Shown: positions 2,817-46,028 of the stretch, piece after piece | Position numbering within the stretch: position 1 is the stretch's first letter | How the letters are laid out: each line of letters opens with the position of its first letter | DNA from: Candidatus Micrarchaeota archaeon | GTDB taxonomy: Archaea; Micrarchaeota; Micrarchaeia; Micrarchaeales; Micrarchaeaceae | DNA: 58,372 nt | NCBI GenBank assembly: GCA_021806095.1 | Contig: JAJZYD010000001.1 | Location: 1 to 58,372 of the forward strand | Reading direction: 5' to 3' | Notes under the pieces: generated by a model | What the model was told of the DNA's origin: nothing | The model's database searches: none | The model's input: the letters and a program-made list of their open reading frames with translations, nothing else | Translations under genes and position numbers: made by a program

Positions 2817-3694
2817 TCAATAACAACTTGATAGAAATTGAGAACTTTGGATATGATAAATTGCATGCTTATTATAATATGGCTATTGATGAATGGCTGT
2901 TTAATTATATCGTAGAAAAAAATATAACTAATAAATTATTTGTAAGGACATATGATTTTTTAAGGTCAGCTGTAATACTTGGCAGGAATGATGATATATC
3001 AAATATTAAAAGATCAGATAATTACGAAAAAAATTATGATTTGACAAGAAGGGAAACAGGAGGTATGCCTATATATGTAGGAGACGAAACTTTTTCTTAT
3101 AGTATTATAGGCAATCTTTCATTCTTGAAGAATAATATAATAACAGTCGAAATACATAAGTTGCTGGGCCCTGTAATTGTTAATGCACTTGAAGAATTAA
3201 TTCCGCAAAATAAAGAGAAAGGAAATTTTGAAGTTGGTAATAAATATAGTATTAAATTTAAAAATAAACCTATAGCAGGCAATTCATCAAACATATCTAA
3301 TAAAACATTTTTATATCATGGTGTAATAACAGTATCAAAACTTGATGCAGATAAAATCTCGACTCTTATAAATTTAAATAAGGAAGATTATGAATCTATT
3401 AAGCAGCTTCCTTATTTGTCTGAAGAAGATTTAGCGGCCCCGCTAGACGCAATAGCCATAAAGGAGAAGCTAAAAAAGAGCATACCTTCAAACATTTGTA
3501 ACCTTCAAAAAAGTAGTAATAATACTGAAGGCAAAGAAGTTCAATTACATGAAATTGATAATAATTTTAAAAATTTAATACTTAAAAATGCTAATGTGAT
3601 TGCAGATAACAAATATAACAATAAAGAATGGATCAATAAAGATAAAGAGAATCTTAAAAGTGGCAGAGGGTATTGTTTGCTCTATCAAGGCTAA
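2813..3694 (+). CDS. Biotin/lipoate A/B protein ligase family protein (LplA-like, divergent)
   Basis: RSAVILGRNDD, RRETGGMPIYVGD (compare RRxSGGGAVxHD) and KNKPIAGNS (compare KISGSA) fit the LplA/BPL_LplA_LipB fold. The nucleotide-binding motif is degenerate. Confidence 0.45.
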   Translation: MINNNLIEIENFGYDKLHAYYNMAIDEWLFNYIVEKNITNKLFVRTYDFLRSAVILGRNDDISNIKRSDNYEKNYDLTRRETGGMPIYVGDETFSYSIIGNLSFLKNNIITVEIHKLLGPVIVNALEELIPQNKEKGNFEVGNKYSIKFKNKPIAGNSSNISNKTFLYHGVITVSKLDADKISTLINLNKEDYESIKQLPYLSEEDLAAPLDAIAIKEKLKKSIPSNICNLQKSSNNTEGKEVQLHEIDNNFKNLILKNANVIADNKYNNKEWINKDKENLKSGRGYCLLYQG

Positions 3695-3848
3695 TACTAT
3701 AAAGTCTATTTTTACAAATTTGCCTTTCTATACTTTCTCATTGTCTAAAATATTTTTTAATTTATAGTTAGTTATTTGTCTAATTATATTTCGTCTTTTT
3801 AAATATTTGTTTTAATATCTTGATATAACTTTATTTTGTGGGATTTAT

Positions 3849-7997: not shown

Positions 7998-8063
7998 ACG
8001 TTTATTTTTTCTTCTTCTTTTTCTTATTATTCTATTTCTTATTATTTTTATGTCTTTCGAAAT

Positions 8064-8164
8064 CCCGTTGGGGAGATTTGAACTCCCAGCCTATCGGTAT
8101 CCAACATGTTGTACATGCTGCAAACAAACTACAGCCGATCGCTCTGCCATTGAGCTACAACGGG
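8064..8164 (-). tRNA. tRNA-Tyr (anticodon GUA) with an approximately 30-nt intron after position 37
   Basis: Reverse complement: CCCGTTG-TA-GCTC-AATGGCA-GAGC-G-ATCGG-CTGTAG[tttgtttgcagcatgtacaacatgttggat]A-CCGAT-AGGCT-GGGAG-TTCAAAT-CTCCC-CAACGGG. All four stems pair. The mature length is 71 nt once the 30 nt are removed. Confidence 0.88.
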
Positions 8165-10214: not shown

Positions 10215-11168
10215 TTATGACACTGGAACATTCAATATGTGTTTTCCTACATACCCTATAAATATTGTAAGTGCATCTATGCTTAATGATATAAACAATG
10301 ACTTGAATATAACTTTTGATATTTTTTTATTGCTTACAATTGCTATTATTGATGATATAATAATAATGACCAAAGTTGTAACAGATAATGCAAGTACAAT
10401 TCCATAAAATCCTGAGAATCCAAAAATAAAAGGTGCAAGAGGAAATAATGATCCTATAAAATATGCAATTCCTACATTCAAAGCAGAGCTTTTAGCGCTC
10501 TTTTGGTTATGATATATATTTTTTTCATATTCTGTTGATATATATGCGCCTCCTCCCATCGAAAATGTTCCTGCCATGCTTACAATAAATCCACTAAGTA
10601 CAACAAACATAGGATTATTTACAACCATTGCAATTCCGGCAATAACTGCAAGTATTTCAACAAGCCCATCATTTAATCCAAATGCAATATCTCTTATATT
10701 ACTGAAAATGTTGTTGAAGCCAACAATTTCATCTTCTAATATTCTCTCTCTTTTAAGTTCATCACTTTCTATATATTTTGTGATTTTTAAATCTTCTTTT
10801 GAAAGTTTGTCGAGTTTAATTATTTTGTTAAGGTTATGTTCTATAACATTTTCATTATATTCAAGGATTTTTATCATTAGTGCAATTCCAAGAAATTTTC
10901 TTGTAATAAGCATAAAACGTTCTGTTGTTTTAAACCTTAATTTTGGGGGTTTTATGTTATTTAGTTTTAGAGCCTCCTCCCATAACCGCATATGTTTTTC
11001 TTCTATTTTTGAGAGTTCAATCAAATCATGATATAAATTATTACTCTTCAATTTTTTTTCATTTGCAAGCGCTTTGTAAATATTTGAATGAAGTGCCTCC
11101 ATATTATAAAGTTCTTTAAAATATTTTATTTTTAATTTTTCATAATTTTTATTAATCAATGCATTCAT
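10215..11168 (-). CDS. Ferritin-like/VIT1 (CCC1) family iron-manganese transporter (MbfA-type)
   Basis: N-terminal erythrin/ferritin-like helices (EEKHMRLWEEAL) are fused to a VIT1 membrane domain (GLNDGLVEILAVIAGIA, several TM helices). Confidence 0.75.
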   Translation of the reverse strand: MNALINKNYEKLKIKYFKELYNMEALHSNIYKALANEKKLKSNNLYHDLIELSKIEEKHMRLWEEALKLNNIKPPKLRFKTTERFMLITRKFLGIALMIKILEYNENVIEHNLNKIIKLDKLSKEDLKITKYIESDELKRERILEDEIVGFNNIFSNIRDIAFGLNDGLVEILAVIAGIAMVVNNPMFVVLSGFIVSMAGTFSMGGGAYISTEYEKNIYHNQKSAKSSALNVGIAYFIGSLFPLAPFIFGFSGFYGIVLALSVTTLVIIIISSIIAIVSNKKISKVIFKSLFISLSIDALTIFIGYVGKHILNVPVS

Positions 11169-24120: not shown

Positions 24121-25095
24121 ATGGAAATGTTAGAAATAAAAAACGTTGTTAAAAAATTTGGTGACTTTACTGCAGTTAATAATGTTAGCTTTAATATTAA
24201 AAAAGGTGAGATATTTGGACTTTTAGGTCCAAACGGTGCAGGAAAAACAACAATATTAAATTTAATTTTAGGCGTCCTTGACCAGACAAGTGGCCAAATC
24301 TATGTAAATGGAATGGATAATAGAAAAAAGGGGAAAGAGATAAAGCAAATAATAAGTTTAATGACTCAAGAAACAATTGTAGAATCAGATCTTACTGCAA
24401 AAGAAAATCTTATGTTGTTTGCAAAGTTGTATCATTTAAATAATGATATAATTGAAGAAAGGATAAAAAACGCTCTTAAAGAAGCTGAATTAACTGAATT
24501 TGCAAATAAGCGCGCAGGTACTTTTTCTGGCGGTATGCAGAGAAGACTTGAGCTTGTTAAGACGTTAATACATGAACCTAAATTGATTATACTTGATGAA
24601 CCAACAACAGGTCTTGATATCCAAAATAGAGTAAAGATGTGGGATCATATAAAAAGTCTTGCAAGACTTGGTATAACCGTGCTTCTTACAACACAATATC
24701 TTGAAGAGGCAGATGCCCTTTGTGATAGGATTGCAATAATAGATCATGGTAATATTATTGCGATGGGAACTTCATCAGAATTGAAAGCACTTGCTGGTGG
24801 CTATATACTTGATATAATAGCAAAGGAGCAGTACATAAAACAGATTGCAGAGATTATTAAAAAACATATGAAAGCAGAAGTTAATATTGCAGCGGATAAG
24901 ATAACAGCAAATGTAACTAAAGAACCATTAGAGGTTATAGGTATAATATCAAAAGTGCTTCAAGATTCAAAGATTCCAGTAATGTCATTTGGGGTACACC
25001 TTCCTACAATAGATGATATATTTCTTAAGCTGACTGGGAAACAGACACGGGACACAACTGGGGAGATGAAAACAAAATTTGTTAAGAGGTTTTAG
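24121..25095 (+). CDS. ABC transporter ATP-binding protein (ABC-2/DrrA type)
   Basis: Walker A GPNGAGKTT, signature FSGGMQRRL, Walker B LIILDEPTTGLD. Confidence 0.93.
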   Translation: MEMLEIKNVVKKFGDFTAVNNVSFNIKKGEIFGLLGPNGAGKTTILNLILGVLDQTSGQIYVNGMDNRKKGKEIKQIISLMTQETIVESDLTAKENLMLFAKLYHLNNDIIEERIKNALKEAELTEFANKRAGTFSGGMQRRLELVKTLIHEPKLIILDEPTTGLDIQNRVKMWDHIKSLARLGITVLLTTQYLEEADALCDRIAIIDHGNIIAMGTSSELKALAGGYILDIIAKEQYIKQIAEIIKKHMKAEVNIAADKITANVTKEPLEVIGIISKVLQDSKIPVMSFGVHLPTIDDIFLKLTGKQTRDTTGEMKTKFVKRF

Positions 25096-25141
25096 ATAGT
25101 AGGATAACAAAAAATTTCATAAAATATATTTAGGGATTATA

Positions 25142-26254
25142 ATGTCACACTTTTGGAAAGATTCAATAGCATTGTATATAAGAGAGATGCAAATATTCAG
25201 AAGTCATCTCCGTACAAATATAATTAGATCAATAATATTTCCTCTTACTTTTATATTACTGCTTGGAAATTTAGGAAGTATGAGTGCTGCGAAGACAAAT
25301 ATTGCTATCGTTAATTATGCGCAAAATCCTCTTTCCTATCAATTTATTAGTGATGTTACTGCATCTCATTCATTAAATATTGTAGCTCAAACAAATCAAT
25401 ATGAAGCATTGAAAATGTTGAGCAACGGCAATGCAACCTTAGTGATGGTTGTACTACCTTCATTTCCTTATGGAAGTCCGAGTATCTATATTTATTATGA
25501 TAATAATCCTATTGAATTAGGCTCATCTCTGCAAGTTATTCAATCATTGACACAACAGTTTGGTGCAACTGCATCTGCAGTAAGCAGTTCTTCAAGCACT
25601 GGCACTACAAGCATATTCATCAATCCAACATACGCAACAAGTGCGAGTTACAAAACATTCCTTATAGGAGGAATTATTGTAATGGTTGCAGTTTTTGGTA
25701 CATTATTTGGTGGTGGATTATCATTAATAAGTGATAAGCAGCTTGGTAATCTTAAATCATTTCTTATAACACCTATTGATAGAAAGTCAATAATAATGAG
25801 CAAAATTTTTTATAGTATAACATTAGCAATGCTAAATGCAACTATTGCGCTAATTATAGGCGTTCTTGATGGCGGTGGTATAGCTATGGGATTATTTGGC
25901 TTAGTATGGATTTATGGTTTAGTTCTATTTGTAGCGATTGGATTTAGTGGATTAACACTTCTCTTAGCGTCAAGAATAGATAAACAGGAAGTATATACAA
26001 TAGTATCAAATGCGCTTATTATGCCATTATGGTTTATATCAGGAGCTTTTTTTCCAACAAGTGCTCTTCCATCATGGCTTTATCCTATTAGTGTAATAAA
26101 TCCACTGACTTATGCGACAAATGGTATGCGTTATGTTATGATGAATGGTTATTATCCATTAAATTTAGTTATATTTGATTTTAGTATATTAATTGTATTT
26201 GCAATAATAATGGTTGTGCTCGCAATTAACTCCCTAAAAAGGACAATTGCATAA
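25142..26254 (+). CDS. ABC-2 type transporter permease
   Basis: N-terminal TM, a large extracytoplasmic loop, then a cluster of 5 TM helices. Follows the ABC ATPase. Confidence 0.8.
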   Translation: MSHFWKDSIALYIREMQIFRSHLRTNIIRSIIFPLTFILLLGNLGSMSAAKTNIAIVNYAQNPLSYQFISDVTASHSLNIVAQTNQYEALKMLSNGNATLVMVVLPSFPYGSPSIYIYYDNNPIELGSSLQVIQSLTQQFGATASAVSSSSSTGTTSIFINPTYATSASYKTFLIGGIIVMVAVFGTLFGGGLSLISDKQLGNLKSFLITPIDRKSIIMSKIFYSITLAMLNATIALIIGVLDGGGIAMGLFGLVWIYGLVLFVAIGFSGLTLLLASRIDKQEVYTIVSNALIMPLWFISGAFFPTSALPSWLYPISVINPLTYATNGMRYVMMNGYYPLNLVIFDFSILIVFAIIMVVLAINSLKRTIA

Positions 26255-26296
26255 TTATAAATTATATTAATATTATAAAAAATAAAAGTGGTATAA

Positions 26297-27958
26297 ATGC
26301 AGATAAAATATTTTTTGGAAAATAAAGTAATAATTTTTGTTCTGTTAGGTGTCCTATTGCTAATGCCTAATGCAATAAATGCACAAACAGCACTTCAATC
26401 ACCAAATGGTGCACTGTCGATAATTAATTTAAATACAACACCACAAACAATAGTTGCAGGAGAAAATGTTGTTTTAACTTTTCAACTCTTCAATTCTTAT
26501 TCTGCGGCATTGCAAAGCGTAAATTTGCAGCTTCAAGCATCAAATCCGATAATAAAAGTGTCTCCATCAAGTACATCTCTTATTGACACAATAGGAAGCG
26601 GGCAATATGGCGGATTAGGTTATGACTTCTTTACATATGTACTTCATATCCCATCAACACTTTCATCAGGTGAATACACAATAGATGTTGTTGCTAATTA
26701 TGAGGCGCCGACTTCTACATCAGCCCAATATAGCCAAACTGTCCCAGCAGAATCCATAATGCCTATTAATTTTTATGTTTATGGAAAACCACATATTCAA
26801 TTAACAGTATCACCAGAACAACCTATCCAACCTGGAACTTTATCAAGCGTATATCTAGATCTCACAAATACAGGGACTGCACCAATATATAATATAACAT
26901 TGCAGATCAACAATTCAAAATATTTTGAGATACCAATTCAGAATGAATTTATGATAGGTGTATTGCAAGCAGGTCAAACAATCCAACTACCTACAGAATT
27001 GCTGCCTATTCAAACAATTTCAAATGGAACATACAGCTTAAATGGAAATATAATTTATACAAGCGAAGAAGGAAATATTACAAATACACCAATATCTGGG
27101 CAGGTTTCTATTATAATAAACAAACCAAATATTGTTGTTGATGCAAATTCAGGAGTTCCACAAAATCTTTATCCTGGAGCAAATCAAACTATAAGCTTAC
27201 TAATACAAAATATAGGAATGGGTGAAGCAAAGAATGTTACTATATCATTTGAAAATACAAATGTGATAAGTGTTGGAAGTATATCAAGTTTCTTTATACC
27301 GTCTCTTCCTCCATCTTCATCTGTTCCAGAAGAGTTATTTGTAACTGCAAATAAAAATGCTTCATTAAGTAAATACAATCTTCCAGAAAATATAAGTTAT
27401 TTATATTCAAATTATCAGAATAAAACAAGTATTGAGGAAAATTTACCTATATACATTTCTCCAAGCGCTGTTATTAGTATAGAAAAAGTATATAGCAATT
27501 TAAACATCGGTGCATCATATACACCTATAACTTTTGAAATTAAAAATATAGGGGATGAAAAAGCTCAAGGAATGTCTATAACACTTCAAAGTACTTATCC
27601 AATAACACCAATAAATTCAAATCAATATATCAATAATCTTCTTCCAGGACAATCTACAAACATAACATTTTATGTAAGTGTTGATACTTCTGGTAATATT
27701 GGAAATTACCCTATAACACTCTATTCACAATGGTCTCAGCCAAACGGAAATCTTAAACAGGAATATTATAGTACAAACAATTATTATGCAACTGTAGAAG
27801 GAAGCAGTAGTTCAAGTAAAGGATCAAACGTTGGAGGAATCGGACTGATTATAGTAGTTGCAGTAATAATAGCAGCATATTATATGTATGAAAGAGTGCA
27901 AAAGAACAAAAAGATGCAAAAATCAAAGAATAAAACAAAAGAGGTTCAAAAGGAGTAA
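26297..27958 (+). CDS. Secreted multi-domain (CARDB/COG1361-like) cell-surface protein with a C-terminal TM anchor
   Basis: Signal peptide (VIIFVLLGVLLLMPNAINA). Repeated beta-rich modules with the N.G...A.N pattern (LTNTGTAPIYNI, IQNIGMGEAKNV, IKNIGDEKAQGM). C-terminal TM plus a Lys-rich tail. Confidence 0.55.
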   Translation: MQIKYFLENKVIIFVLLGVLLLMPNAINAQTALQSPNGALSIINLNTTPQTIVAGENVVLTFQLFNSYSAALQSVNLQLQASNPIIKVSPSSTSLIDTIGSGQYGGLGYDFFTYVLHIPSTLSSGEYTIDVVANYEAPTSTSAQYSQTVPAESIMPINFYVYGKPHIQLTVSPEQPIQPGTLSSVYLDLTNTGTAPIYNITLQINNSKYFEIPIQNEFMIGVLQAGQTIQLPTELLPIQTISNGTYSLNGNIIYTSEEGNITNTPISGQVSIIINKPNIVVDANSGVPQNLYPGANQTISLLIQNIGMGEAKNVTISFENTNVISVGSISSFFIPSLPPSSSVPEELFVTANKNASLSKYNLPENISYLYSNYQNKTSIEENLPIYISPSAVISIEKVYSNLNIGASYTPITFEIKNIGDEKAQGMSITLQSTYPITPINSNQYINNLLPGQSTNITFYVSVDTSGNIGNYPITLYSQWSQPNGNLKQEYYSTNNYYATVEGSSSSSKGSNVGGIGLIIVVAVIIAAYYMYERVQKNKKMQKSKNKTKEVQKE

Positions 27959-40691: not shown

Positions 40692-41057
40692 TTAATTATG
40701 TGAAGGCGATATTTGTTTGAGCTTCAACATATTCCTATATTTATTAACCAATGCAACTGCCTGCGACACAGCTTTAATAACATCTGCTCTTGTATGTGCT
40801 CCTGTACATATCACCTTGCCATTCTTGAAAAGAAGGAGTGCCGCCTTGGGTTCGTGTATTTTTAATATTGCCCCTGGAAATTGTTCTGGTTCATAATCAA
40901 TATCTGGGGATATTTTAGCAAGATTATAAAGGTCAAGATCAACTTTCATATCTGCGCTTGCAACAATATTTTCTACATGATATGTTGGTTTTAATACAAC
41001 ATGTTTATACTTTGTCTCTATTTTTTTTGCATTTTTTCTTTCCTTTTTTCTTACCAT
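40692..41057 (-). CDS. tbp: Single-repeat TATA-box-binding-protein-like protein (half-size TBP) with a basic N-terminal tail
   Basis: VENIVASADMKVDLDLYNLAKISPDIDYEPEQFPGAILKIHEPKAALLLFKNGKVICTGAHTRADVIKAV matches one complete TBP repeat (ENIVAS...YEPEQFPG...LLFxSGKxVCTGA). The ORF is only 121 aa, flanked by noncoding DNA and rfcL. Confidence 0.8.
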   Translation of the reverse strand: MVRKKERKNAKKIETKYKHVVLKPTYHVENIVASADMKVDLDLYNLAKISPDIDYEPEQFPGAILKIHEPKAALLLFKNGKVICTGAHTRADVIKAVSQAVALVNKYRNMLKLKQISPSHN

Positions 41058-41309
41058 TTCAACACCAATTAAGCAAAATATGTATCAAAGCACAATTCTC
41101 CAATGCTTTGTGTTATTTGTTATAATTATATTTTTGAAATATTTAATATAATTTTTAATATATTTAATATAATAATATATAAATATATAATATAATGCTT
41201 GATATTCTACCTTATCTAAAAATTCTTAAATAATTGTTATAATAATAAATATCGCAATAATAAGAAATTATTAAATTATAAATAGTAAAATATAAATCTT
41301 TTAAATTTC

Positions 41310-43079
41310 TTATTTTAAAATTTTATTTATAAAAACAAATGAATCTTCTTCTTCCCCGATTTTTGTAAAATTATTTTTTGTCAATAAAGTTATTGAAGCA
41401 GTATTTTTCTTTTTTGATAATGCGTATACTTCTTTTATATTTATATCATTCATTTTTTTAATTATTTTGTTTAATAAGTCTGTTGCAATTCCTTTGCGCC
41501 TATATTCCTGTTTTATAGCAATACCCAATTCAAAGCGCTTTTTATTTTGATTCCATACAACGTTTGAAAAACCCACTACTACATTTATTGAATTATTTAT
41601 TGCTAAAAGAAAATATCCTTTTTTCATTTCCATATTTCTTATATTGTATCCAATCCATTTATCAATATCTATTATTTTATATAACTCCATTTGACTGTCT
41701 TCTTCTTTTTTAAGATCATTTATAAGTTTTTTAATGTGCTCTAAATAATCTAAATTTAAAGGTATTAATACAATTTTCTTAATCTCTTTATAATAATAAT
41801 ACTCTAGCAAATATCTTAATATTTCATTAATTACTGTACAAGAATATTTATCTATAAATCCTAATTTGCCTGTTTTTGTATATATATCATATGCACAACT
41901 TCCTCCACATAATCCAAGAGCAGGACAATTCCAGCATTCCTCATTATATAGAGGAATGCCCATTTTTATCCATTCATACATTAAAGGATTCTTGGTAGCT
42001 AAGAAACCGTTTGCTATTTTATCTTGATACAAATCTGCGGTAAAAAATGCTTGACATGGTCCAAGGGTTCCTTTTGGTGAAAATGCAATTTGCTGACCAT
42101 ACGCAGGACAGTCATAAAATTTAGGTATTTCATTAAATAAAGATTCTGCCCGTCTTCTTCCTATCCTATCCTCATATATATTTAATTCTTGAGCTCTTGT
42201 AAATCCCCTAAATAAATAATATGCAAGAATTTTAGGATCTTCAACTGCATAATCTTTATTTGTTGCATCAAGAATAATATTAAAACCAATTGCTTTAACA
42301 CCTAATTCATAAAAGAAATCAACTATTTTATCAAGAAAAAGATAATTGAATTTTGTTACTGTGCAAGATATTCCAGGTGATATTCCATTTTGTTTTAATA
42401 TAGACAGTGCTTTTATTACATCAAAAAAACTTTCATTGTTATTTTTATATACTCTATTTTTATTTAAATTTCCCCACCCATCTAAGGACAAACTGATACC
42501 AAAAGCATGTTCTTTAAAATATTTAGCTATTTCATCATTCATTAGACTTCCATTAGTTATTATACTAAATTTAAATTTGTCTTTATTGATTGCTTCAAAT
42601 TGTTCTACAAAATATTTTAAAATTTTAATGTTTAATAAAGGTTCACCCCCATAAAATATAATCTTATATTTATCAATATTTTTAGAATTATTCTTTATAA
42701 TCTTGATAATGTTGTCTGCTTGATTCTCATTCATAAAACTGCGTTTTGAAGAAAGTGCATTTTCAATATAACAATATTTACATCTAAAATTACATTCATC
42801 AGTTAATAAAATATAAGACATTGAAGGATTTGGTGCTTTAATTGTTTTAGTTTGAATTATTTTATTAATAGCTTCTTTTTTATTATAATTATCATTTACT
42901 ATAAACTTTAGTTTTTTTAGATTTTCTACGCTCTCATTATCTGCATTAGTTTGTATATCCTTAATCAATTGTTTATACTCAATATTGTTCATATATACTT
43001 TTTTTAATGAGAGAGAATGAAATAAACATATTTGATCCTTGCAACAATCAAATACATAAACAAATGGAGATATTTTCAA
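41310..43079 (-). CDS. Radical SAM / SPASM-domain peptide-modifying enzyme fused to a C-terminal GNAT N-acetyltransferase
   Basis: rSAM cluster CNFRCKYC. SPASM motifs C-x12-G-x4-C (CPAYGQQIAFSPKGTLGPC) and C-x2-C-x5-C-x3-C (CWNCPALGLCGGSC), plus a downstream Cys. GNAT motif A QEYRRKGIATDLL in the last ~150 aa. The N-terminal ~85 aa before the cluster could be an RRE. TTG start preceded by AAGTGA. Confidence 0.85.
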   Translation of the reverse strand: MKISPFVYVFDCCKDQICLFHSLSLKKVYMNNIEYKQLIKDIQTNADNESVENLKKLKFIVNDNYNKKEAINKIIQTKTIKAPNPSMSYILLTDECNFRCKYCYIENALSSKRSFMNENQADNIIKIIKNNSKNIDKYKIIFYGGEPLLNIKILKYFVEQFEAINKDKFKFSIITNGSLMNDEIAKYFKEHAFGISLSLDGWGNLNKNRVYKNNNESFFDVIKALSILKQNGISPGISCTVTKFNYLFLDKIVDFFYELGVKAIGFNIILDATNKDYAVEDPKILAYYLFRGFTRAQELNIYEDRIGRRRAESLFNEIPKFYDCPAYGQQIAFSPKGTLGPCQAFFTADLYQDKIANGFLATKNPLMYEWIKMGIPLYNEECWNCPALGLCGGSCAYDIYTKTGKLGFIDKYSCTVINEILRYLLEYYYYKEIKKIVLIPLNLDYLEHIKKLINDLKKEEDSQMELYKIIDIDKWIGYNIRNMEMKKGYFLLAINNSINVVVGFSNVVWNQNKKRFELGIAIKQEYRRKGIATDLLNKIIKKMNDINIKEVYALSKKKNTASITLLTKNNFTKIGEEEDSFVFINKILK

Positions 43080-43104
43080 GTATTCACTTAATTATTGTTA
43101 AAAA

Positions 43105-43275
43105 TTATAGTAATTCTATTATTTTTATATTATTGTCTTGTGGGCCACTGCATATACAATCGCAATCATTTCCGTCACAATCGCCTCCACCACAATAACC
43201 ATAATCGCATTCACTACATACATTCGATTCTATATCTTTTTGATTATATAGTAATATAGGTTTTGATATTTTCAT
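43105..43275 (-). CDS. Cys/Asp-rich 56-aa peptide, candidate precursor/substrate of the adjacent rSAM-SPASM enzyme (not in the ORF track)
   Basis: Own translation: MKISKPILLYNQKDIESNVCSECDYGYCGGGDCDGNDCDCICSGPQDNNIKIIELL*. AGTGGT SD-like motif 3 nt upstream of the ATG. Same strand as, and 25 nt upstream of, the rSAM gene. G+C-rich island in an AT-rich spacer. Confidence 0.65.
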   Translation of the reverse strand: MKISKPILLYNQKDIESNVCSECDYGYCGGGDCDGNDCDCICSGPQDNNIKIIELL

Positions 43276-43304
43276 GTTACCACTATAATACTCTCACTGG
43301 AAAG

Positions 43305-43314
43305 CTTTAAATAT
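43305..43314 (-). promoter_or_regulatory. TATA-like box for the peptide/rSAM operon
   Basis: The minus strand reads atatttaaag about 30-40 nt upstream of the peptide ATG. No other gene starts in this spacer. Confidence 0.3.
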
Positions 43315-43511: not shown

Positions 43512-44408
43512 CTATTTTTTATTGCTTGAGATGAATACTAATAAAGCTTCATTAATTATTAATTTATTCCTTGCCTGCTCCCATACTATGCTCTGCTTTC
43601 CGTCAAGTATATCAGAAGTTATTTCCTCACCTCTATGTGCTGGTAAGCAGTGCATGACCTTTGCTGATGGAGCAATTTTTAGAACCGATGAGTTAAGCTG
43701 ATAAGGAGCAAATAGTTTTTTGCGATTTTCTGCTTCTACTTCTTGGCCCATACTAACAAATGTATCTGTATATATGAAGTCCGCATCTTTTACACCTTCT
43801 TTTATTGAATCTGTAATATTAATATTGAAATCTTTATTGTTTTCTTCTGCAATTTTTATAATGCCGCTGTTAGGATTATATTTTTTTGGGCCAATCAAAC
43901 TAATCTTCATGCCAAATTTTGATGCAACAAGCATTAATGAATTTGCGGTATTGGCTGCTATGTCTCCTATAAAGGCAACTTTTCCGCTTTTTAATTTTTT
44001 ATATTTTTTCATTGTATAGACGTCGGCAAGCGCCTGTGTTGGATGTTCTAAATCAGTAAGCGAATTGATTACCTGGGCTGAGGAATATTCTGCCATGGTT
44101 TTGATATCTTTATGATTATAAAGTCGTGCAGCTATAAAATCAGAGTATAATCCAAGAATCTTTGATGTATCTTCAATGCTTTCGCCTCTCGACATATGTG
44201 TTGTCGATGAATCAATATAAGAAGATGAGCCACCTAATCGGGCTATTGCAACTTCAAATGATAGCCTTGTTCTTGTTGAAGGTTTTTCAAAGAAGAGCGT
44301 TAAAAATTTCTTTACTTTAAAGGACTTCCCTGATGATATTTGGTCTGCAATCAAAAATATTTTGTTAATATCATTGAGACTAAGATCATTAGCACTTAGT
44401 ATATGCAT
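43512..44408 (-). CDS. argF: Ornithine carbamoyltransferase
   Basis: STRTR, HPTQALAD, DTFVSMG and HCLPAHRGEE. HCLP is diagnostic for OTC as opposed to ATCase (HPLPR). Confidence 0.88.
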   Translation of the reverse strand: MHILSANDLSLNDINKIFLIADQISSGKSFKVKKFLTLFFEKPSTRTRLSFEVAIARLGGSSSYIDSSTTHMSRGESIEDTSKILGLYSDFIAARLYNHKDIKTMAEYSSAQVINSLTDLEHPTQALADVYTMKKYKKLKSGKVAFIGDIAANTANSLMLVASKFGMKISLIGPKKYNPNSGIIKIAEENNKDFNINITDSIKEGVKDADFIYTDTFVSMGQEVEAENRKKLFAPYQLNSSVLKIAPSAKVMHCLPAHRGEEITSDILDGKQSIVWEQARNKLIINEALLVFISSNKK

Positions 44409-45467: not shown

Positions 45468-46028
45468 TTAGTTTAAATTTTTTCTATATAATTCTATGTA
45501 CTCTGGTTTGCCGCTCTTCAATCTGCTTTCAATTATTTTGATTGCGCTGCAAGTGAAAGTACCAAATTCAAATGTCTGTTTCTCTTTTATTATAGATAAG
45601 AATTTATTCCTATTATTATAATCTATATACTTGACTCTTGCTAATGTTATATGCGGCTTATAAACTTTTTTGATATCTGCATTCAATTTTGAAGCTGTTG
45701 GAAGCAAATAATTATATATTTTATTTATATTATCAGTATTTTCTATATCTGCAAATATTATTCGTAAATTTTTACCGTCAAAAGTATTGAAACTTTTTAA
45801 TGAAATCTTAAAACTTTGCATATCAAGTTTATCAAGCAGTTCTTTTATTTCTTCTAGTTTGTCTTTTTGTACATGTTCAAAAAAGAATAGTGTTATATGC
45901 AATTGACTTATATCTACTATTTTTACATTATCTTTGATTGGTTTAAGAAAATTTTTTGCGCTATTATGTAGAATTCTTTTTGCTTCATCTGGCAATTCTA
46001 TAGCAATGAAAGCTCTAATCATATCCAT
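45468..46028 (-). CDS. thpR: RNA 2',3'-cyclic phosphodiesterase (ThpR/LigT, 2H phosphoesterase)
   Basis: Two H-x-T-x motifs (LHITLFF and PHITLAR) at the expected spacing. About 186 aa. Confidence 0.85.
   Translation of the reverse strand: MDMIRAFIAIELPDEAKRILHNSAKNFLKPIKDNVKIVDISQLHITLFFFEHVQKDKLEEIKELLDKLDMQSFKISLKSFNTFDGKNLRIIFADIENTDNINKIYNYLLPTASKLNADIKKVYKPHITLARVKYIDYNNRNKFLSIIKEKQTFEFGTFTCSAIKIIESRLKSGKPEYIELYRKNLN

Follow-up and report, generated by a model that had tools for sequence, protein, structure and literature searches.

What can a small peptide gene and the single modifying enzyme gene beside it produce when neither a protease nor an exporter gene stands with them? The question is raised by a minus-strand locus at positions 41,310 to 43,314 of a 58,372-nt stretch of DNA (the window in what follows) from a Candidatus Micrarchaeota archaeon (contig JAJZYD010000001.1). 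The locus spans ~2 kb and holds two genes, for a peptide of 56 amino acids (aa) and, 25 nt downstream, for a 589-aa enzyme in which a radical S-adenosylmethionine (SAM)/SPASM maturase is fused to a GNAT acetyltransferase (Table 1). The balance of evidence tips slightly towards a two-gene cassette of the ribosomally synthesised and post-translationally modified peptide (RiPP) type, the product of which would be ranthipeptide-like, with several Cys-to-Asp/Glu thioether bridges and an acetyl group. Multiple thioethers of this kind are the most likely chemistry, to which we give about an even chance on the sequence evidence, because Cys and acidic residues are paired in the peptide core, the first auxiliary cluster (AC1) of the enzyme is predicted to follow an open-site scheme and PapB and QhpD are among the best-scoring families.

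The pairing of the two genes was found to extend well beyond the window. A search of 5.8 billion proteins returned the GNAT-fused homologues P0002, P0003, P0004 and P0039 (58, 51, 50 and 32% identity) together with many unfused homologues of ~470 aa (43-49% identity). Five further loci encoding fused enzymes (32-59% identity) had retrievable contigs, and in all five a Cys/Asp-rich small open reading frame (ORF) was located directly 5' of the enzyme gene on the same strand. A profile search with the peptides matched only four database clusters and contributed one of these five, L093 (the sixth locus when the window is counted), where the pair is preceded by genes for KsgA, Rpb4, L21e, CDC48, LigT and a kinase. 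The small ORF is present beside the enzyme in eight loci (the window, L001, L002, L003/L004, L092, L093, L094 and L097), the flanking genes differ between all of them, and all-versus-all BLASTP identified the peptide and the enzyme as the only common genes, with no third shared gene besides the housekeeping LigT. As the small ORF stays by the enzyme while its surroundings change at every locus, the pair is a self-contained, co-inherited two-gene unit. The original prediction had regarded the pair in this way, and had proposed a comparison of related genomes in which an enzyme gene consistently without an adjacent small ORF would speak against it; the pair was found to travel alone. Between L002 and L093 the ratio of non-synonymous to synonymous polymorphism (pN/pS) was 0.12 for the peptide gene and 0.17 for the enzyme gene. 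These values show purifying selection on the peptide gene and, given also its retention in eight loci, the small ORF is a real, selected gene.

The enzyme gene starts at the TTG at 43079 and not at the ATG at 42992. Its first 29 residues (MKISPFVYVF...CLFHSLSLKKVY) match the N-terminal ends of all close homologues in alignment, and the database copy P0001 (560 aa, from the ATG) is therefore 29 residues short. Public gene calls are too short by 29 residues in the window (42992-43079) and by 24 for P0006 and P0007 (L094 4335-4406 and L097 2676-2747), where TTG is again the correct start codon; the missed residues belong to an N-terminal domain resembling a RiPP recognition element (RRE). An AlphaFold2 model built on a 108-sequence alignment (predicted local distance difference test, pLDDT, 94.5; predicted template modelling score, pTM, 0.83) comprised this N-terminal unit, a partial TIM barrel, the SPASM region and a complete GNAT fold from ~residue 434. 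Residues 7-78 were modelled with a pLDDT >90 as three strands and three helices, which is the layout of an RRE. No Pfam or NCBIfam profile matched residues 1-85 alone, and Foldseek aligned the model with the RRE-bearing TigE (8VPO) and CteB (5WGG) over ~465 columns. Residues 3-85 of TigE have been described as an RRE (PMC10878394). The order of Foldseek matches in the PDB was TigE (8VPO), CteB (5WGG/5WHY), anSME, ChlB and SuiB, with generic GNATs for the C-terminal part.

The cofactor-binding motifs of the maturase are complete. Pfam Radical_SAM (residues 91-239) and Fer4_12 were both matched above their cut-offs, and the CX3CX2C motif (C96, C100 and C103; 42771-42794) is invariant in the 108-sequence alignment. 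The Pfam SPASM model gave no match to the enzyme. Seven Cys of this region (C324, C342, C382, C385, C391, C395 and C414) are invariant in the same alignment, with a spacing equal to that of C344/C362/C400/C403/C409/C413/C432 in CteB; these are its only conserved Cys, with no additional one between C324 and C342. In CteB, PapB and Tte1186, three Cys are placed on AC1, leaving one iron open, and four on the second auxiliary cluster, AC2 (PMC10177961). Judged by these positions, the enzyme is predicted to have an AC1 with three protein Cys ligands and an open site for a substrate thiolate.

The peptide has no family match in Pfam or NCBIfam. Peptides beside unfused enzyme relatives carry the same leader motif (MWISIPSEL), and we infer that this motif binds the RRE-like domain of the enzyme. 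An acidic residue follows each of the seven core Cys at a distance of 0-6 positions, and C20, C23, C38, C40 and C42 are invariant in the alignment of close peptides. Orthologous cores vary in length and in Cys number (7 to 11) as CD units are gained or lost in frame, and the counts of Cys and acidic residues rise together in the close family (7:7, 9:8, 11:11, 9:8 and 7:7). PapB links the sulfur of Cys to the C-beta of Asp or the C-gamma of Glu in CX3D motifs, and tolerates C-Xn-D with n = 0-6, whereas a reversed order is not accepted (PMC9413430); all C-Xn-[DE] spacings of the core are within that range. The same Cys-Asp and Cys-Glu thioethers are formed by QhpD (PMC8326336). Tails resembling the C-terminal follower occur in L003 (VKEIIQRLL), L094 (DLITNAV) and L097 (DLITSAL) and are absent from L001, L002, L092 and L093. 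A strain variant of the window peptide, P0122, has Asp34 replaced by Gly (GDCDGND to GDCGGND), and this core Asp is thus dispensable or polymorphic.

The C-terminal part of the enzyme scored above cut-off over residues 468-577 with PF13302 (44 bits, cut-off 25.4) and PF00583 (42 bits, cut-off 20.7), and the full strand-helix order of a GNAT fold is present in the model. The acetyl-CoA motif R/Q-x-x-G-x-G/A is represented by RRKGIA (residues 527-532; 41484-41501) and kept in 13 of 15 fused clusters, while N559 is invariant. The best sequence match in the PDB was the archaeal N-alpha-acetyltransferase SSO0209 (E ~4e-8), and the best NCBIfam model was RimI, below its equivalog score (34 bits, cut-off 86). 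Acetylation of the same peptide is the most plausible role of the fused GNAT, and its nearest relatives favour an alpha-amino group as the candidate acceptor.

On the proposed mechanism, the 56-aa peptide would be the substrate and would be held through its short leader (M-x-I-S-K/I-P) by the RRE-like domain. The radical SAM cluster would split SAM, and the resulting 5'-deoxyadenosyl radical would take a side-chain hydrogen from an acceptor residue of the core; a core Cys at the open iron site of AC1 would then form a thioether to that carbon. The product would contain several bridges from Cys-S to Asp-C-beta or Glu-C-gamma, like ranthipeptides such as freyrasin. Afterwards or beforehand, the GNAT would move an acetyl group from acetyl-CoA onto an amine of the same peptide, probably the alpha-amino group, or else a lysine of the leader or follower. 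Proteolysis or export, if any, would proceed via unlinked genes.

Several observations weigh against such a multiply bridged product. The enzyme falls far below every equivalog cut-off, with best NCBIfam scores to the FibroRumin maturase (173 of 400 bits), PapB (166 of 340) and QhpD (120 of 453), followed by HxsB, CefB, Nif11-type, AmcB and SCIFF (104 of 425) maturases, and its chemistry is for this reason not transferable by homology. Since the best curated matches are all this distant, the enzyme is a new subfamily among peptide cross-linking radical SAM/SPASM maturases. TigE, its top PDB match by structure and by sequence, makes cyclopropylglycine and not thioethers (PMC10878394), and in SCIFFs only one of six Cys has been seen cross-linked (PMC8326336). 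The L092 peptide has nine Cys and only five acidic residues, and the repeat of a partner protein at L005 (ACWSCGTGPTP) is without Asp. There is no lysine in the core and no leader peptidase is evident, so an alpha-amino group is no more than a candidate acetyl acceptor. The window DNA recurs near word-for-word in metagenomes of mine drainage, mine tailings and sediment, with the same enzyme protein on 11 contigs in the same synteny. None of the sampled words of the peptide gene was present in RNA runs of the same study, and metatranscriptome matches were only spurious (~20-36 nt), which says nothing either way on transcription.

The low family scores and the L005 repeat leave room for the same gene pair to carry out another radical chemistry, with the GNAT still acetylating the product: sactionine alpha-carbon thioethers, C-C or C-O cross-links, cyclopropanation, epimerisation, or conversion of Cys to a formylglycine-like residue. 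Such an outcome is possible though distinctly the less probable, and the PDB matches are indeed of mixed type, including a cyclopropyl synthase (TigE), a thioether former (CteB), an oxidising enzyme (anSME), ChlB and SuiB. However, an open-site AC1 with three Cys is the scheme of thioether formers (PMC10177961). The Cys are moreover the only strongly conserved core residues, the acidic count follows the Cys count in the close family, and nothing in the core resembles the Val/Ile-rich motif of TigB/TvgA. The scheme of anSME has eight Cys, and that enzyme is not known to contain an RRE. The metal-rich origin of the metagenomic matches, the dominance of alternating Cys and Asp in the core, and a peptide with no signal peptide and no exporter or peptidase within 10 kb would also suit an intracellular, metallothionein-like peptide that binds metal or Fe-S clusters, with one or few modifications, an acetyl cap and most thiols and carboxylates free; the single cross-link per six Cys of SCIFF peptides (PMC8326336) offers a precedent. 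This we consider rather unlikely, as a simple chelator needs no dedicated radical SAM maturase with an RRE-like domain and thioether formation would use up its thiols. The peptide is also without similarity to any metallothionein family in Pfam or NCBIfam, and peptides of unfused lineages are much poorer in Cys (5-6) and carry long tails.

It had also been suggested, by analogy with PqqA/PqqE and MftA/MftC, that the peptide gives rise to a small redox cofactor, and a SPASM enzyme with an RRE-like domain beside a small peptide, with no exporter, does recall those systems. The analogy was not supported, and we regard this origin as very improbable: the best scores were to thioether-forming and cross-linking RiPP maturases, and neither PqqE nor MftC ranked in the top 25 of the 78 NCBIfam matches of the enzyme. 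A core of variable length and Cys number argues against it in the same way, as does the absence of a linked peptidase, oxidoreductase, cofactor-dependent enzyme, pqqBCDF, or mftB and mftD-F from loci that share only the pair. PqqA is marked by Glu-X3-Tyr and MftA by a C-terminal Gly-Val-Tyr, and neither is seen in the peptide sequence. Equally slight is the chance that the small ORF is incidental and that the enzyme acts on an unlinked protein, in the manner of QhpD or anSME. Both are among the sub-threshold matches (anSME with 93 bits, cut-off 349), but there is no sulfatase in the annotated parts of the window and there are no qhpA/qhpC-type neighbours or quinohemoprotein amine dehydrogenase genes nearby. 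The RRE-like domain of the model and the selected small ORF kept beside the enzyme in eight loci point away from it as well.

A stapled and acetylated RiPP is the reading retained here. In a more specific form, one bifunctional enzyme would yield an N-acetylated, multiply thioether-stapled peptide that is not a secreted antibiotic and stays in or on the cell of an ultra-small DPANN archaeon of acid mines, where it may, for instance, buffer metals or act in signalling or adhesion to the host archaeon. Taken as a whole this picture is speculative and more likely wrong than right by a wide margin. If true, it would represent the first defined DPANN-native RiPP class and the first radical SAM maturase with a built-in tailoring acetyltransferase.

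Among known systems, the best curated score was to the FibroRumin maturase (TIGR04136), over residues 6-414 and hence including the N-terminal domain; that enzyme has no GNAT, and we know of no characterised product of the FibroRumin system. PapA/PapB of Paenibacillus polymyxa, which make freyrasin, share with the pair a radical SAM/SPASM maturase (with an RRE in PapB and an RRE-like N-terminal domain in the window enzyme), the scheme of three and four auxiliary-cluster Cys and a core with Cys preceding Asp (PMC9413430, PMC10177961). The window core is, however, irregular (CxxC[DE], CGG and (DC)n) where PapA has six regular CX3D motifs, and the window system has a very short leader, a fused GNAT, an archaeal host and a chemistry that is only predicted. 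SCIFF peptides of Clostridia with CteB or Tte1186 are similarly small Cys-rich precursors beside a radical SAM/SPASM maturase, and CteB is the second structural match, but they have a Thr acceptor, no GNAT and an unrelated precursor family. SCIFFs are so widespread that an antimicrobial role has been doubted and one in quorum sensing proposed (PMC8326336). QhpD is likewise a radical SAM/SPASM enzyme forming Cys-Asp and Cys-Glu thioethers (PMC8326336), although on a protein subunit encoded within a qhp operon, genes of which are not seen in the annotated parts of the window. GNATs are known from RiPP clusters, some with radical SAM maturases, in the selidamide acyltransferases and the daropeptide enzyme PasC (PMC10849128). 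Those are stand-alone proteins, the selidamide enzymes moving fatty acyl groups and PasC having no known function (PMC10849128), whereas the window GNAT is fused to the maturase and resembles an N-alpha-acetyltransferase.

An intracellular peptide and a classical antimicrobial RiPP had both been expected to be unusual for a reduced archaeal genome. This expectation is weakened, as Cys-rich-peptide systems are widespread (PMC8326336) and RiPP clusters of DPANN, among them ranthipeptide and sactipeptide types, are on record from antiSMASH surveys: one mined archaeal genomes and recorded these two types throughout DPANN (PMC12144867), and nine RiPP-related clusters were reported from 189 genomes in a DPANN survey of acid mine drainage (PMC12153355). 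With the enzyme class, its Cys-rich partners and pair-only loci all well known, the advance is incremental. The GNAT fusion and the precursor family do appear to be undescribed: neither is covered by a curated Pfam or NCBIfam model, and neither was found in literature searches, which is weak evidence given that most subscription journals are outside their coverage. No characterised archaeal radical SAM RiPP product is apparent, and few archaeal RiPP products of any kind have been identified (PMC12144867, a 2025 survey). The small size of the cassette makes direct synthesis and co-expression feasible and would allow PapB-like thioether chemistry in DPANN, and the contribution of the fused GNAT, to be tested. 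PapB-type enzymes already serve as peptide-stapling tools (PMC9413430, PMC12373016), and a single protein that staples and acetylates could be similarly useful. A further question is why such a peptide is retained by an archaeon that has a reduced genome, probably depends on a host and lives in a metal-rich acid habitat.

Outside the eight loci, the relationship between fused and unfused enzymes was also considered. The nearest unfused relatives, P0006 and P0007 (45-47% identity, G+C content ~0.5), have a small ORF upstream whose peptide (MWISIPSEL...ECGACACMDCQDCGP...QMDLITNAV) shares the leader motif. A second unfused group (P0005, P0008, P0014 and P0017), on archaeal-looking contigs with a G+C content of ~0.4, adjoins, upstream or downstream, proteins of 141-196 aa with tandem repeats of DCPVEICSSCGN or ACWSCGTGPTP. 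The repeat proteins (L005 11661-12242, L006 11616-12041, L007 11744-12334 and L099 1143-1709) contain 2-4 tandem copies of DCPxxxCSSCGN or ACWSCGTGPTP between a Lys-rich N-terminal and a helical-looking C-terminal part, and look like an uncharacterised family of protein-sized substrates; genes for a B12-binding radical SAM protein and a methyltransferase are located near those of L006 and L007. An exhaustive HMMER search across 1.84 billion cluster representatives yielded ten further fused clusters (26-37% identity). When the radical SAM/SPASM core was placed in a neighbour-joining tree, constructed without support values, the unfused groups were nested within the fused clade, which tentatively suggests an old fusion that some lineages later lost. 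A scan of genome contigs with generic radical SAM patterns drawn from the enzyme alignment detected only distant bacterial radical SAM proteins (21-34% identity) and no close relative, and one of metagenome contigs with the fusion-specific C-terminal alignment detected the L003 contig only. A defence-system assignment by PADLOC was rejected, as only the radical SAM core (residues 91-247) matched models of pVip (viperin) and the peptide gave no match.

Table 1. Features of the peptide and maturase cassette in the window, and peptides encoded upstream of orthologous enzymes
Feature	Position	Strand	Details
TATA-like box	43305..43314	-	ATATTTAAAG; ~30-39 nt 5' of peptide ATG; candidate archaeal promoter of cassette
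Precursor peptide gene	43105..43275	-	56 aa, stop included; ORF with product MKISKPILLYNQKDIESNVCSECDYGYCGGGDCDGNDCDCICSGPQDNNIKIIELL; homologous ORFs beside orthologous enzymes
Leader, residues 1-19	43219..43275	-	MKISKPILLYNQKDIESNV; conserved N-terminal M-x-I-S-[KI]-P motif from peptide alignments
Core, residues 20-47	43135..43218	-	CSECDYGYCGGGDCDGNDCDCICSGPQD; 7 Cys, 7 Asp/Glu, three CX3[DE] sites
C-terminal follower, residues 48-56	43108..43134	-	NNIKIIELL; present in only some orthologues
Spacer between peptide stop and enzyme TTG	43080..43104	-	25 nt, operon junction; orthologues with 12-nt spacer or 4-nt overlap
Bifunctional maturase gene	41310..43079	-	589 aa, TTG start; fusion of RRE-like, radical SAM, SPASM and GNAT parts
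RRE-like domain, residues 1-85	42825..43079	-	Modelled with three helices after three strands
Radical SAM core, residues 86-318	42126..42824	-	Pfam PF04055, E 9e-21
SPASM domain, residues 319-433	41781..42125	-	Seven Cys; CX2CX5CX3C block at 41895-41936
GNAT acetyltransferase domain, residues 434-589	41313..41780	-	Pfam Acetyltransf_3, Acetyltransf_1 and Acetyltransf_7 above cut-off
AT-rich spacer, enzyme stop to TBP gene	41058..41309	.	252 nt, G+C content ~0.17; end of cassette
L001 upstream peptide			...CSECEWDWCGGHCDCSGGSDCDCDCSCIGPSD
L002 upstream peptide			...CDYCESGYCGGECDCDCEGDSYCDCDCDCVCVGPND
L003/L004 upstream peptide			...CSGCDYADCGAPTDTCGSDCDCNCVND...; 4-nt overlap with enzyme start
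L092 upstream peptide			...CEGCFCDCVSGACDCLCSCESCDP

The control signals proposed for the cassette were upheld in part. The predicted TATA-like sequence is present at 43314..43305, with TTTAAAGC beginning at -36 relative to the peptide ATG, and TTTAAA-type boxes occur at -26 to -39 in the orthologous loci L001, L002 and L093. A role as cassette promoter is plausible, and these positions are suggestive only, because such a hexamer is carried by 11% of 31-nt stretches taken at random; it also stands upstream of 27% of the long ORFs in the window. The Shine-Dalgarno motifs described before both starts do exist but are weak (GGTAAC and GTGA) and clearer in orthologues (GGTGAT). The AT-rich spacer of about 250 nt described behind the enzyme gene was confirmed by measurement, and no real repeats, no terminator-like site on the minus strand and no decayed TBP repeat were found within it (41058-41309). 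The G+C content of the cassette (0.21-0.33; whole window 0.29) is the same as that of its flanks, and there is thus no sign of recent transfer.

The cassette is located, as previously described, between a gene for ornithine carbamoyltransferase upstream (43512..44408, minus strand; above the NCBIfam cut-off) and one for a TBP-like protein downstream (40692..41057, minus strand). The assigned genes within ~10 kb on each side all look like housekeeping genes (for SecY, RadA, tRNA-intron endonuclease, LigT, ribosomal protein S8e, RFC-like AAA protein, DHH phosphoesterase and KaiC-like ATPase). Adjacent leader peptidase and exporter genes had been reported as missing, and no peptidase or transporter was found within ~10 kb on either side, apart from a presenilin-type signal-peptide peptidase encoded 8 kb from the cassette. 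The nearest transporter, and besides a VIT1-family gene the only one seen in the window, is an ABC-2 pair on the other strand (24121-26254), 17 kb away, where genes for the ATPase and permease are followed by that of a 553-aa CARDB-domain protein (24121-27958, plus strand). The VIT1-family (iron/manganese transporter) gene is located at 10215-11168 (minus strand) and fits a metal-rich habitat.

At L092, the gene directly downstream of the distant fused maturase (3076-3843) encodes 255 aa with the HExxH-like motif HEVMH, and a PIN-domain gene comes next. The 255-aa protein is a possible leader peptidase and has no counterpart in the window; neither this candidate nor the proteins encoded beside L002 and L094 gave family matches. 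A LigT-type 2',5' RNA ligase gene lies 0.7-2.2 kb 5' of the cassette both in the window (45468-46028, minus strand) and at L093 (6106-6648), the two products being 30% identical, which may reflect residual synteny or coincidence.

The downstream TBP consists of a single repeat (121 aa) and has its best named homologues in Candidatus Micrarchaeota and Anstonellales. Nearly all of its 120 best homologues have two repeats (180-210 aa), the only other single-repeat protein being P0130 (117 aa, 91% identical), and tblastn detected no second repeat across the whole window, the AT-rich spacer included. To build the DNA-binding saddle, a TBP with one repeat would need to pair with a second copy of itself. 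In P0125, a full-length TBP of the Micrarchaeota type, both repeats are almost identical to each other, which suggests recent internal duplication or concerted evolution in that lineage. Elsewhere in the window, Rfam identified a second tRNA gene at 8063-8164 (minus strand), 102 nt long for a 71-position model and not called by ARAGORN, which is probably an intron-containing archaeal tRNA beside tRNA-Asp.

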